Shown piece after piece: positions 3,738 through 47,217 of a stretch of 64,000 nt of DNA. A program made the translations under genes and the position numbers. The notes under the pieces were generated by a model that was not told the origin of the DNA, searched no databases, and worked only from the letters and a program-made list of their open reading frames with translations. The DNA lies in assembly GCA_044359385.1 (NCBI GenBank), contig JBIKMG010000001.1:13363-77362 (forward strand), read 5' to 3'. This DNA comes from Coxiellaceae bacterium. Lineage in GTDB: Bacteria; Pseudomonadota; Gammaproteobacteria; JAJRRL01. Every line of letters starts with the position of its first letter. Position 1 is the first letter of the stretch.

Positions 3738-6700
3738 TCAACGAGAAGGGCTTTGGTTACTCTGACTTCCATCCGCTGATGCTGCAGGCAGTCTAGGAGA
3801 CTGCGGCAGCCCCTGTGATCCACCACCAAATAGTGCTGAACTGCTATTTGCTTTTGGGGGTGTTGGTGGACTAGCTACTTGGCTGAAGCTCGCTTCAAGC
3901 AACTTAAGTTGTGCATCAAGCGCTTTTTGATGTTGTGCTTCAAGTTGTGCTTTCTGTCCTGCAAGCTGATCTGCAAGCTGTTTTTCAAGTGCATTCCGCG
4001 CTAAAGTCTTCAGTCGCTCATCTTCTTCCCGCGTTTCTCTTGCTTCCGCCTCTTCGGCTTCCCTTATTGCACGCGCCACTACTGGACGCTCGTCTTCTTC
4101 AGCTTGTTTATAGATTTCTTTTTGTCGCTTTGCTAATGCTTGTTGAATTTGTAAGATTTGATCATCCGTTGCGGTCATTTCGTCAACTCTTCTTTTTACA
4201 TTTGCAGGTAATTGCATTTTTAGTGCTTCTATGGTTTCGCGCCTTTTTTCAGCAGCTGCAGCTTTTTTCTGAACACTGATTTTTTTTGCTTCTGAAAGTA
4301 TGCTCTGAAGTGTGTTTGGATCTAATGGTTGAGTTTGCTTTGATGCAGCTGCAGCTGCAGCGGGTACAACTGCGCTAGCGTGTGCCTTTGAGCTGGCCGC
4401 AGAACTCAAAGAACCAGTATAACCAGATGAACTCTCAAAACTAGAAGAAGCAGCAGCACGTGGTTGACCTTGAGGATTCCTCACAGCAAACACTTCATCA
4501 AAGGTATGCAGCGATGCTTGATGAGGCTCTTGGGGTGGCAGGGGAGGATTGTGAGATGCTGCAAATGATGCGATTGTCTTGCTTGCGGCATCAGGAGCAG
4601 CTTGAAAAGCCATGGTTCTTTGCGCTTGAGCTTGAAAAGGGCGTTGTGCTGGCTGATTTGCAGCTGCACCCGCTCCAGCTGCGCTAGCCTGTGCCTTTGA
4701 GCTGGCCGCAGAACTCAAAGAACGAGTATAACCAGAGGAACTAGCAAAACTAGAAGAACTAACTGAAGCAGAAGAGCTAGAGCCAGAACCAGTAGAAACA
4801 GGACCACTTTGACTTAAAGTAAGTTTTTTACGAGCATCTAGTGAAAGCCCAGTTGTTAGTAGAGGCCGACTCCCTTGGCTTGCTGGCATCTGGACAGGTT
4901 TGGAAGATGCTGCTGATGATGAAACTGAACTGTTAGCGCTTTGAGAAGCAGTAGGTTTTGGCGTTTGAACTTGAGCTGGAGGTCGAGCAGGCTGTTGCGC
5001 AGGTGAAGCAAATGAATTTGACCCGTTTGAAGAGTTTGAAGGCATAGAAGGGACTCCCTGTTTTAGTTGAATGATTGTATATATTTCATGGATTGATTCC
5101 CGAAAAGATTTGCGCATATTACTAAAATCAGTGTGTTCCTTGGTTGGCTTAGGTTTTTCACGTCCGAATGGATCTTTCTTAATGGAAAATGGATTTTTAA
5201 GCGCTGCAAAATTATCCCCCACTTCTTTTTTTAAGTCTATAGCGTTTTTATCTGCTGATTCCACCCGAAGCTCTTTAAAATTGCCAGCTTTTAATAATTC
5301 TTTTGCCTTGTTTAAAATGCCAGTCCAGGCTTGTGACCATATTTGAAAACACTGAGTTTTTTCTTTGAGTGTCCCATTTTCTTGTCCTGAAAAAATCTTA
5401 AAATGTCCGGTAAGTGCTAATGTATCGAGATCACTTAAAATAACACATAGCTGTTGCTTTGCAGGATCATAGTTTAATTCAAACTCAGGGATTTTTGGTT
5501 GAGCTTCATGCCCTTCAGATTCAGTCGATTCATCCTCCTCTGCTGAAGCTTGTCGATATAACTTTTTAAAAACTGTTGTTAGCGTGTTAAGATTGTCACC
5601 GCCTTCAATGGTTGTGATCAAAAAAAGCTTCTTCTCAAGGCATTTCGTTTGTATACCCTTAATTAAACGTAAAAATCCCGTTTTATCCCATAGAGTATTA
5701 AATTTTGCAGAAGAATGTTTAGGGATAGAACTCATATCCAGCGGTAATACAACAATGGCACCTTTATGAAGTGAATCAAGCGTGTTCACTTGTTCAAAAA
5801 GTTTTTGCCTTTCTGTCGGTATCCATAATTTTCGAATTTCAAGAGACTCGGGAATTTCGTGATTGGTAGTCGTAAGAACAGTCGCGAGTTTGTCGTCACT
5901 CCCAAGTAGATTTTTCTCAGGATGTGGCCAGCTTATTGTTGTTTGGCTGGTATGGTAGGTTGGTGGAACTATTAAAATAGGATTTGTGCTTAGATCTATA
6001 GTTGTAGCTAAATCAAATCTTTCTATCATATGCAAAAAGCTTGATGCCGTCGTGACCAAATTATTCGCTGTGAAAGTCGTAGAAGCCAATCCATTATCTA
6101 GTTGAGTTAAAACTTCCATCTCCAGATTTTCTCCAATTGACTGAAGTACTCGGATAGTAAAATTCTTGAGCGAGTCAGCAAGTGAAGGCATTCTTTGAAG
6201 CATTGCCGCGAGCAAAGATGCTTGAAAGAGAAAGCACATGGTTTTTTTGTTTGAGCTTTGTTGCCAAGCTTTGAAGATAGGATGCGTATCGATTATGTCT
6301 AAGAGAAGGGCTGTTTTGTCTTGTAAGTATTCCTGTATTTTATCGGGTGCATCCTCTAGCAGGGGTTCTACCTCCTCTTTGGTCACAGCGCAAAGCTCAG
6401 CGGCTGTTGCATAGTATTGTGAACTTCTGACTCGATATTGTTTAGGAATATTTAGGGCAGCTATCATCGTTGTAATTCTTTCATTTTGGTCGGTGTCATG
6501 TGCTGGCCAGCGCGCGAGCTCTTGGAAAAAATCACCACGGGGTAGAAAAAAGTTTTCTCTTTTGCTTATAGTCGAATAATACTGAATATCACGCTCGAGG
6601 TGAGATAAATCAGATGAGCTTGATGAGCTATGGGATGATGAAGGCATAGAGGCTCCTTGGGGTTGTTGCTGGGCTTGTTGGATTTCATTTGCGGCAGAAG

Positions 6701-47217: not shown

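Follow-up and report, generated by a model that had tools for sequence, protein, structure and literature searches.

What are four very large open reading frames (ORFs) doing among the housekeeping operons of an uncultured gammaproteobacterium? This question is raised by a stretch of 64,000 nucleotides from a Coxiellaceae bacterium (assembly GCA_044359385.1, contig JBIKMG010000001.1, positions 13,363 to 77,362), here called the window. According to the ORF list, the four giants, designated G1 to G4, lie at positions 3738-8063, 14350-19692, 29948-33574 and 42352-47217, all on the minus strand, and encode proteins of 1441, 1780, 1208 and 1621 amino acids (aa), respectively. Together they fill 18,162 of the 64,000 bp, or 28% of the window. 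Four proteins of at least 1200 aa among approximately 58 window genes correspond to a binomial p of ~8e-4, taking as background an assumed frequency of 0.7%, which is our own estimate. From our genomic analyses we conclude, with moderate confidence, that G1-G4 are substrates of a type IVB (Dot/Icm) secretion system, acting in the protist host of an uncultured freshwater gammaproteobacterium of the Legionellales type.

The initial annotation had described four minus-strand ORFs of 1.2-1.8 thousand aa without signal peptides, and this description is confirmed to the exact coordinates. A signal-peptide-type hydrophobic N-terminus was found by hydropathy in none of the four giants: the maximum 15-residue Kyte-Doolittle value within the first 45 aa was 0.55-1.31, versus more than 2 in the exported and membrane proteins of the window. 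The accompanying label "cytoplasmic" does not simply fit G4, which contains a hydrophobic segment with 2-4 predicted membrane helices. No similarity was detected among the giants themselves, nor between G3 and the domain-less neighbours of the G2 and G4 homologs.

If the giants are secreted, which machinery would export them? The 64-kb window contains no secretion-system genes, as had been noted before, and the search for dot/icm genes was extended beyond it, as the initial annotation had advised, by tracing the genes at its right end onto further contigs of the species. A metagenome contig (L107) overlaps window positions 62179-64000 with 100.000% identity and no mismatch in 1822 bp, and carries icmW, encoding a protein of 151 aa, approximately 6.4 kb beyond window position 64000. 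Because the overlap is free of mismatches, the window's own strain carries icmW. The identity of IcmW is supported by the NCBIfam equivalog model NF038222 (146.6 bits versus a cutoff of 100), by a Pfam match with an E-value of 1.8e-47, and by a comparison with L. pneumophila IcmW (PDB 5xnb), to which it is 48% identical over 145 residues. It is adjoined by a divergently oriented 175-aa ORF resembling IcmV (E = 2e-10, below the curated cutoff). Reading rightward, the gene order is mlaFEDCB-murA, kdsD/kdsC, lptC/A/B, ptsN, an HPr-kinase-C-like gene, npr, the icmV-like gene and icmW, and the linkage between the window end and icmW recurs in four samples. The expectation of a Legionellales-like organism with its type IV system encoded elsewhere in the genome is borne out by these two genes just outside the window. 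IcmW and the IcmV-like protein are observed components of type IVB machinery, from which we infer that the genome encodes a complete, functional system.

Two ORFs, 158 and 388 aa long, lie downstream of icmW (contig L107, 842-2502, approximately 6.9-8.6 kb past the window), and each begins with a signal peptide. Neither matched IcmX or any other family; their position is that of IcmX in Legionella. In every contig of this species the sequence stops 2.5-2.9 kb past icmW, which points to a repeat or a variable region there. On its other side, the icmV-like gene abuts the nitrogen phosphotransferase system genes ptsN, HPr-kinase-C-like and npr (contig L106, 3711-4927); the nitrogen phosphotransferase system has been reported to modulate the effector regulatory network of Legionella (PMC6989116).

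The type IVB secretion system is present in almost all Legionellales, and IcmS and IcmW are parts of the coupling complex that were added to it on the Legionellales stem (Hugoson et al., PMC8896642). The same study found that only two effectors are shared beyond the Legionellaceae and that effectors turn over fast. Within this background the present organism stands apart: the nearest relatives of its IcmW in JGI metagenomes are 44-58% identical, and its proteins L21, L27 and S20 are singletons when clustered at 90% identity. The distance of the IcmW relatives and the lack of a 90% relative of L27 therefore indicate a deep, poorly sampled lineage. A scan of JGI metagenomes with IcmW yielded no longer contig of the species. 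The samples that hold it include a Lake Mendota co-assembly (3300059473), and its habitat is therefore freshwater plankton. Among the matches listed in a genome-collection scan with GlnS, the best were metagenome-assembled genomes of Deltaproteobacteria and Verrucomicrobia at 59% identity. In PDB comparisons, MurA of the window pointed to Gammaproteobacteria and no finer, and the best matches of its DegQ were DegQ entries which we take to be from Legionella.

The presence of a secretion system does not by itself identify its substrates. In Legionella, effectors are classified correctly by taxonomic restriction in 90% and by G+C content in 78% of cases (PMC2701608), and by these best-discriminating criteria, extreme taxonomic restriction and low G+C, the giants are effector-like. 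An exhaustive HMMER search with residues 1-900 of G1 retrieved only seven relatives among 1.84e9 cluster representatives; among 5.8e9 proteins, G2 has three homologs besides itself, and G3 found only itself. The G+C content at third codon positions (GC3) is 0.29-0.35 in the giants, with 0.316 for the giants versus a mean of 0.381 in 33 other genes (Mann-Whitney p = 0.005). Elsewhere, homologs of the giants are found in unrelated housekeeping neighbourhoods, often next to other large domain-less ORFs.

The giants also vary between strains. A variant strain is represented by contigs from ENA assembly ERZ4201065; they match the window at 99.6-99.8% identity but lack two blocks of 4.6 kb, both cleanly deleted. 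The first, at 3741..8355 (contig L085 compared with the window by blastn), removes G1 without its stop codon, together with 292 bp upstream; its junction shows microhomology of only 3-5 bp and no repeats of the insertion-sequence type. The second, at 42957..47544 (contig L088), removes codons 1-1420 of G4 and 328 bp upstream. It is flanked by imperfect direct repeats of 13 bp (42944-42956 and 47545-47557), and the variant bears a hybrid repeat; the deletion therefore happened in the variant strain. What remains of G4 there is a 196-aa ORF comprising only the OTU domain, approximately 80 bp from cydB. The same strain keeps G3 and at least the first 647 aa of G2. Between the two strains, the ratio of nonsynonymous to synonymous differences (N:S) is 16:7 in the giants versus 13:33 in 17 housekeeping genes (Fisher p = 0.0017), and the giants are under relaxed or diversifying selection. 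They are intact, lineage-restricted, low-GC3, fast-evolving and dispensable accessory genes. Three contigs of the Lake Mendota co-assembly (22,048, 23,598 and 23,241 bp) terminate at or inside G2 and G4, which is consistent with mixed giant alleles breaking the assembly.

Such a pattern raises the question of whether the giants are decaying, functionless relics of horizontally acquired DNA. The near-neutral N:S ratio, the strain with two large deletions, the dead duplicate domain and altered metal ligand of G1 described below, and the lack of relatives of G3 all speak for this explanation. Nevertheless, ORFs of 1208-1780 codons are uninterrupted in several samples, the ATPase and OTU motifs of G4 are intact, and homologs only 30-53% identical to G1 and G2 have kept the catalytic motifs of both unchanged. 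This invariance implies long-term purifying selection, so that these are not simply dead genes, and we consider the relic explanation very unlikely.

What, then, do the giants encode? Their enzyme modules have eukaryotic or effector-type enzymes as the nearest characterised relatives, and the catalytic motifs are intact, apart from the changes in G1 described below. G1 (3738..8063, minus strand, 1441 aa) consists of an HDAC-like module, a degenerate duplicate of it, and a tail of low complexity with a coiled coil. Its assignment as HDAC-like had been proposed before and is upheld, though the protein is very divergent: the Pfam Hist_deacetyl match has an E-value of 3.5e-10 and 40.1 bits, above the curated cutoff of 27.9. 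Module 1 (aa 23-465, 6669..7997, minus strand) retains the motifs PPGHHAG, GMDS..GDP and EGGYN, and its best solved structure is Arabidopsis HDA15 (PDB 6j6t, E = 1e-3). Aligned to HDA15, module 1 is seen to have kept the His-His dyad, the catalytic Tyr and both Asp ligands, but to carry Asn where HDA15 has its zinc-ligand His (DVDINsaNG versus DwDvHHgNG). The D-x-D-I-N motif recurs in four homologs (P0151, P0152, P0153 and P0156), and the His-to-Asn exchange is conserved family-wide. Because the zinc ligand is altered, G1 may be either a deacylase or a substrate-binding pseudo-enzyme. Module 2 (aa 496-855, 5499..6578, minus strand) is an internal duplicate, as seen when the two halves were compared by BLASTP (37% identity, E-values 9e-45 and 2e-16). 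It reads PPTYHTS and EGGDN, its metal-binding segment is deleted and every catalytic residue is gone; judged by these residues, the second copy is catalytically dead.

The last 540 residues of G1 comprise Ser/Ala/Gln/Pro-rich low-complexity sequence plus a coiled coil, and a permissive Pfam scan gave no match outside the domains. At the extreme C-terminus, G1 and its 53%-identical homolog P0151 share a conserved tail (..SPR.P..ASADG......SR, window 3741-3800), preceded by low-complexity sequence that is not conserved. The tail may therefore be functional, and is of another type than the acidic C-terminal signal discussed below. On its downstream side G1 is followed directly by a 102-aa pilin-like gene with an N-terminal methylation motif (3038-3346, plus strand) and is adjoined by a tRNA gene (2707-2779, minus strand); a cluster of three tRNA genes lies at 11863-12125.

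G2 (14350..19692, minus strand, 1780 aa, ending ...QQVEENEIGGGSSASCQRVI) starts with three enzyme domains, which are followed by approximately 1100 residues in which a permissive Pfam scan found no domain. The first is a HAD-like phosphatase (aa 24-165, 19198..19623, minus strand) with an intact DxDxT motif (LDIDDTLL); the second is an atypical protein-kinase-like domain (aa 190-430, 18403..19125, minus strand) with a Gly-rich loop GGGSNS, the catalytic loop LGNTDSAKRDNW and VDAG; the third is a Nudix hydrolase (aa 440-600, 17893..18375, minus strand) with an intact Nudix box (GGKS..REIREESSG). Pfam returned NUDIX plus DUF2608/HAD matches. The Nudix domain has both the box GX5EX7REUXEEXGU and the Nudix fold of PF00293, and the HAD domain has motif I DxDxT and the Rossmann-like fold of the DUF2608/class C acid phosphatase type. 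An AlphaFold model of residues 1-660, built on an alignment of four sequences, had a mean predicted local distance difference test score (pLDDT) of 61, with 70-88 in the kinase core, and fold searches with this model returned three consecutive enzymes. The Nudix domain is nearest to Dcp2/NUDT7 and the kinase to CtkA, a translocated kinase of H. pylori.

The initial annotation had read this protein as a HipA kinase with Nudix and HAD domains. The Nudix and HAD domains and a kinase fold of the CtkA/HipA class were recovered, but no HipA profile was matched: neither a Pfam kinase nor HipA_C was found at E<=10. According to a preprint, CtkA, HipA and the Legionella effector MavQ form one structural class, and the label "HipA-like" was in the right neighbourhood for that reason. 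Compared with the cell-translocating Ser/Thr kinase CtkA (PDB 3akl/3akj), the kinase of G2 is 14-16% identical and differs in that it sits between the HAD and Nudix domains of a 1780-aa protein. Upstream of G2, a 91-aa acidic ORF (19868..20143, minus strand) lies between recJ and G2 and starts at the recJ stop codon. It is kept in all strains seen and has no Pfam or PADLOC match; it might be a chaperone-like partner, or simply belong to the recJ operon. On contig L083, an ortholog of G2 with 53% identity (P0148) is followed by a domain-less 1115-aa ORF (L083 11391-14738) that is unrelated to G1-G4; further ORFan giants exist in related organisms.

G3 (29948..33574, minus strand, 1208 aa, ending ...GNTEEFPSKAVGVVYPSS) is a species-specific ORFan. 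It had no match in Pfam (E<=10), NCBIfam or PADLOC, a PDB sequence search returned noise, and a single-sequence AlphaFold2 model with a pLDDT of 35 was unusable. It had been interpreted as an EEP enzyme. This interpretation found no support in the Pfam scan, the PDB sequence search or the model; the strings SFN..LQE..GDLN..SDK, recognised by eye, lack a catalytic His and have an atypical spacing for EEP. Convergent with G3 is a gene for a 562-aa protein with TPR and a class I methyltransferase domain (28093-29781, plus strand), which matches PADLOC mad2 (mads_2, E 1.5e-13) and BioC/UbiG-type methyltransferases and is not obviously housekeeping.

G4 (42352..47217, minus strand, 1621 aa) combines a SecA-like ATPase, TPR, a hydrophobic segment, a coiled coil and an OTU peptidase; a permissive Pfam scan gave no match outside these domains. 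The ATPase is its largest module and had been overlooked in the initial annotation. This SecA-like motor domain (aa 88-650, 45268..46956, minus strand; Pfam SecA_DEAD E 3.5e-36) has intact ATPase motifs (Walker A TGEGKTT, DEVD, LTGT, TNLAGRGTD and GRAGRQG). SecA_DEAD and P-loop_SecA scored 125 and 61 bits. The NCBIfam SecA model gave 252 bits versus a cutoff of 862, and G4 is therefore not a true SecA translocase. The hydrophobic Gly-rich segment (aa 927-1041, 44095..44439, minus strand) accounts for the 2-4 membrane helices predicted by hydropathy and is homologous to proteins of Megaera (E 2e-15) and L. geestiana (E 2e-5). The OTU cysteine peptidase (aa 1441-1541, 42595..42897, minus strand) carries the catalytic motifs DGDC..HY. 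Here the earlier assignment held: the Pfam match to PF02338 (E 1.4e-9) scored 39 bits versus a cutoff of 23.3, and DGDC and GAHY align to the catalytic motifs of OTUD3. The nearest solved structures are human OTUD3 (7.8e-6), nairovirus vOTUs and OTUD5; no Legionella Lot-type deubiquitinase was among the PDB sequence matches at E<=1. G4 is flanked by cydB on one side and by a 59-aa ORF with a weak CydP match, then yhbY, on the other (41392-42351 and 47218-47624), a gene order that gives G4 the appearance of having been inserted into a unit of cydAB and a small subunit.

The ATPase of G4 belongs to a widespread family. Its relatives are hundreds of giant proteins in Rickettsia, Orientia, Cardinium and many metagenomes, and in eukaryotes they occur in Paramecium, Tetrahymena, rotifers, amphipods, flukes and insects. 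Segment-wise BLAST located the SecA-like ATPase in 119 of 119 G4 homologs and the hydrophobic segment in 51 of them, eukaryotic ones included, at a median of 298 residues past the ATPase; the OTU end was common to the ortholog P0002 only. The conservation of ATPase and hydrophobic segment therefore defines the family core as an ATPase plus a membrane segment with variable ends. The C-terminal domains of the relatives are highly diverse and include Ulp1, pertussis-toxin S1, AHH/WHH/colicin nucleases, RES, DnaJ and ankyrin. When 72,556 plasmids were searched, the best G4 matches all fell on plasmids of intracellular bacteria, namely Ca. Megaera polyxenophila, Ca. Bandiella woodruffii, the Rickettsia endosymbiont of Culicoides and Legionella geestiana. 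The 13.8-kb plasmid of L. geestiana consists mostly of one gene for a 2947-aa HEAT + SecA-like protein (WP_135842960.1). The phage collection that we searched for G4-type SecA-like proteins contained true SecA genes only. SecA-like helicase-related domains have been reported in Amoebophilus effectors (PMC3482391) and in the eukaryotic association module of the Wolbachia phage WO (PMC5062602).

G4 shares with the SecA-like giants of intracellular bacteria an N-terminal or central motor ATPase (31-37% identity), a Gly-rich hydrophobic segment approximately 300 aa downstream, and variable enzymatic or repeat ends; such proteins occur in host-associated bacteria and in eukaryote genomes. In contrast to the members on plasmids and in prophage, G4 is chromosomal, between cydB and a cydP-like ORF, and the L. 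geestiana protein differs from it by its HEAT repeats and the lack of an OTU domain. A decidedly unlikely, far-reaching possibility is that the core is a self-contained membrane-insertion or protein-threading engine, which would position or deliver fused enzymatic heads (OTU, Ulp1, nucleases, ADP-ribosyltransferase, DnaJ or ankyrin) in host membranes. If true, this would explain the retention of the core in endosymbionts with unrelated secretion systems and in their plasmids and phages, as well as its presence in ciliates, rotifers and arthropods.

Since the relatives of G4 occur in bacteria with different export systems (Rickettsiales and Cardinium/Amoebophilus) and in phage WO, the giants could be aimed at a host or the environment but exit the cell without Dot/Icm, by way of type I secretion, outer-membrane vesicles or lysis. 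The lack of an acidic C-terminal motif in G1 would fit such a route. Against it, a Dot/Icm adaptor gene is located on the same chromosome, signal peptides and type I features such as RTX are lacking in the giants, and known Legionella substrates span a size range that includes their 1200-1800 aa. We therefore regard export by another route as quite unlikely.

Among the C-terminal domains of the SecA-like relatives are nuclease, deaminase-type, ADP-ribosyltransferase and RES toxin domains, which brings up the possibility that the giants are polymorphic toxins directed against competing bacteria. No immunity-type or small co-oriented gene was found downstream of any giant, however, the downstream neighbours being the pilin-like gene, a convergent dapE, the convergent TPR-methyltransferase gene, and cydP-like/yhbY; nor did Pfam detect a PAAR, Rhs, LXG or two-partner-secretion trafficking domain. 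Zhang et al. (2012) likewise judged endosymbiont OTU proteins not to be polymorphic toxins against competitors, which also argues against this explanation. We consider it highly improbable.

Alternatively, the site of action could be the bacterium itself, where the giants would serve in conflict or defence or as regulatory enzymes. Strain-variable, low-GC, large proteins with an NTPase plus an effector domain are typical of anti-phage immunity, and the combination of an ATPase with a peptidase, or of Nudix and kinase domains, resembles the architecture of defence proteins. The strain-level presence and absence, low GC3 and fast evolution of the giants fit equally into this picture; their secretion is a prediction, and the hydrophobic segment of G4 could sit in the bacterial membrane. 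Arguing against such a role, PADLOC gave no matches for G1-G3 and for G4 only noise from a Cas3-type helicase (E ~1e-3). The window has no defence-island or mobile-element context, each giant standing singly between housekeeping operons. Moreover, the family of G4 is abundant in obligate endosymbionts and eukaryote genomes, and its OTU domain is closest to eukaryotic deubiquitinases. On balance, we find a function inside the bacterium unlikely.

Do the giants carry the signals expected of Dot/Icm substrates? In the published E Block, found in ~50% of known substrates, a span of 6-10 residues contains 3-6 acidic ones, and the first Glu tends to stand 11-18 residues before the end (PMC3096851); our test also expected small or polar residues and then a hydrophobic residue near the end. 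G2 fits this definition, with EENE at -17..-14, followed by GGGSSAS and a hydrophobic end (..RVI), and its three homologs retain the design. It had been claimed that three of the four giants have Glu-rich C-termini. The quoted peptides are indeed present, but they contain only 2-3 Glu each, and G2 alone conforms to the published definition. A criterion formulated post hoc ("EE or ExE at -8 to -25") was found in three of the four giants versus 4 of 36 other window proteins. A lax definition of the E Block applied to 20 of the 36 other proteins.

The regions upstream of the giants measure 306, 175 (after the 91-aa ORF), 203 and 407 bp, with G+C contents of 0.30-0.37. The AT-rich upstream regions of 175-410 bp that had been pointed out were recovered at this length, but their AT-richness is not distinctive, as the other intergenic gaps of the window have G+C contents of 0.29-0.47. 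Scans of the four upstream regions for sigma-70 promoters and terminators gave chance-level results only.

Several observations weigh against the giants being Dot/Icm substrates. The Dot/Icm genes seen number two, with the IcmV match below its curated cutoff. The strict E Block occurs in one of the four giants versus 7 of 36 other window proteins (19%); G3 and G4 carry EE only, G1 has no acidic motif, and P0002, the ortholog of G4, stops directly behind its OTU domain without an E Block. A C-terminal signal alone classifies 60% of Legionella ORFs correctly (PMC2701608). PmrA or CpxR boxes (tandem TTAAT or GTAAA) were not found above chance upstream of any giant, with the limit that the consensus may differ in this lineage. 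None of the giants matches a curated NCBIfam Dot/Icm effector model, as is expected given effector turnover. The hydrophobic segment of G4 could instead anchor the protein in the bacterial inner membrane, and the near-neutral N:S ratio and the deletions fit genes that are being lost equally well. With effectors being replaced so quickly, an absence of homology to known ones is uninformative, and neither such homology nor PmrA/CpxR elements are obligatory for Dot/Icm substrates.

On the reading we prefer, that of Dot/Icm substrates acting in a protist host, the giants would be recruited by the DotL coupling complex, either by way of acidic tails at the C-terminus, of which G2 has the clearest, or via the IcmS-IcmW adaptor, and would be translocated unfolded. 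Inside the host, G1 could act as a deacylase of lysine or another amide, or bind substrates as a pseudo-enzyme; G2 could unite three enzymes in one hub of phosphate and nucleotide chemistry; and G4 would place an OTU deubiquitinase on a host membrane by means of its membrane-anchored ATPase.

Known Dot/Icm effectors include MavQ (a kinase), Ceg4 (a HAD phosphatase) and LphD (a deacetylase). The OTU deubiquitinase LotA is also among them (PMC9486567). The giants resemble the Dot/Icm effectors of Legionella and Coxiella in being large multidomain proteins without signal peptides, in their low G+C, extreme taxonomic restriction, rapid turnover and scatter among housekeeping genes, in their OTU, kinase, HAD and deacetylase chemistry, in the acidic C-terminal motif of G2, and in being encoded by a genome with IcmW. 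They differ in that they are unrelated in sequence to curated effector families, that the OTU domain of G4 has its best matches in eukaryotic and viral proteins, that the HDAC-like domain of G1 has Asn for a zinc-binding His, that the fusion of HAD, CtkA-class kinase and Nudix domains in G2 has three relatives anywhere, and that their translocation is predicted only.

A close parallel is offered by the Legionellales symbiont Ca. Centrionella anaeramoebae, in which long, dispersed, multidomain predicted effectors make up approximately 27% of a genome with Dot/Icm (preprint 10.64898/2026.04.11.717937), similar to the 28% of the window filled by the giants. That symbiont has 36% GC and is anaerobic, in contrast to the window organism with approximately 41.5% GC and an aerobic gene set (cydAB, fadE and electron transfer flavoprotein), and no proteins shared with the window were detected.

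The annotatable rest of the window is gammaproteobacterial housekeeping. It comprises prfB, ileS-lspA, three tRNAs, dapD-dapE, recJ, rsfS-rlmH, mrdA-rodA-mltB and glnS; ribF-murJ, rpsT, obg-rpmA-rplU, ispB, cydAB, lepB and fadD; and fadE, bamD, rluD, yfiH, degQ, murA and mlaBCDE.

Large eukaryote-like effectors scattered through Legionellales genomes are already known. What is new here are the particular proteins, the occurrence of the family with a SecA-like ATPase and hydrophobic segment in a Dot/Icm organism, and the natural deletion alleles. With our results, a deep, uncultured freshwater branch of bacteria bearing Dot/Icm gains four large candidate effectors. The HAD-kinase-Nudix fusion of G2, the conserved His-to-Asn ligand of the G1 family with its apparently dead tandem copy, and the 1208-aa ORFan G3 are unprecedented. 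The presence of G4 in a Dot/Icm organism may allow Legionella to be used as a tractable surrogate for a module that pervades Rickettsiales symbionts and eukaryotes. If the giants are effectors, the deletions between lake-metagenome strains show effector loss in action, and provide natural knock-outs that could be tracked in the 20-year Lake Mendota series.

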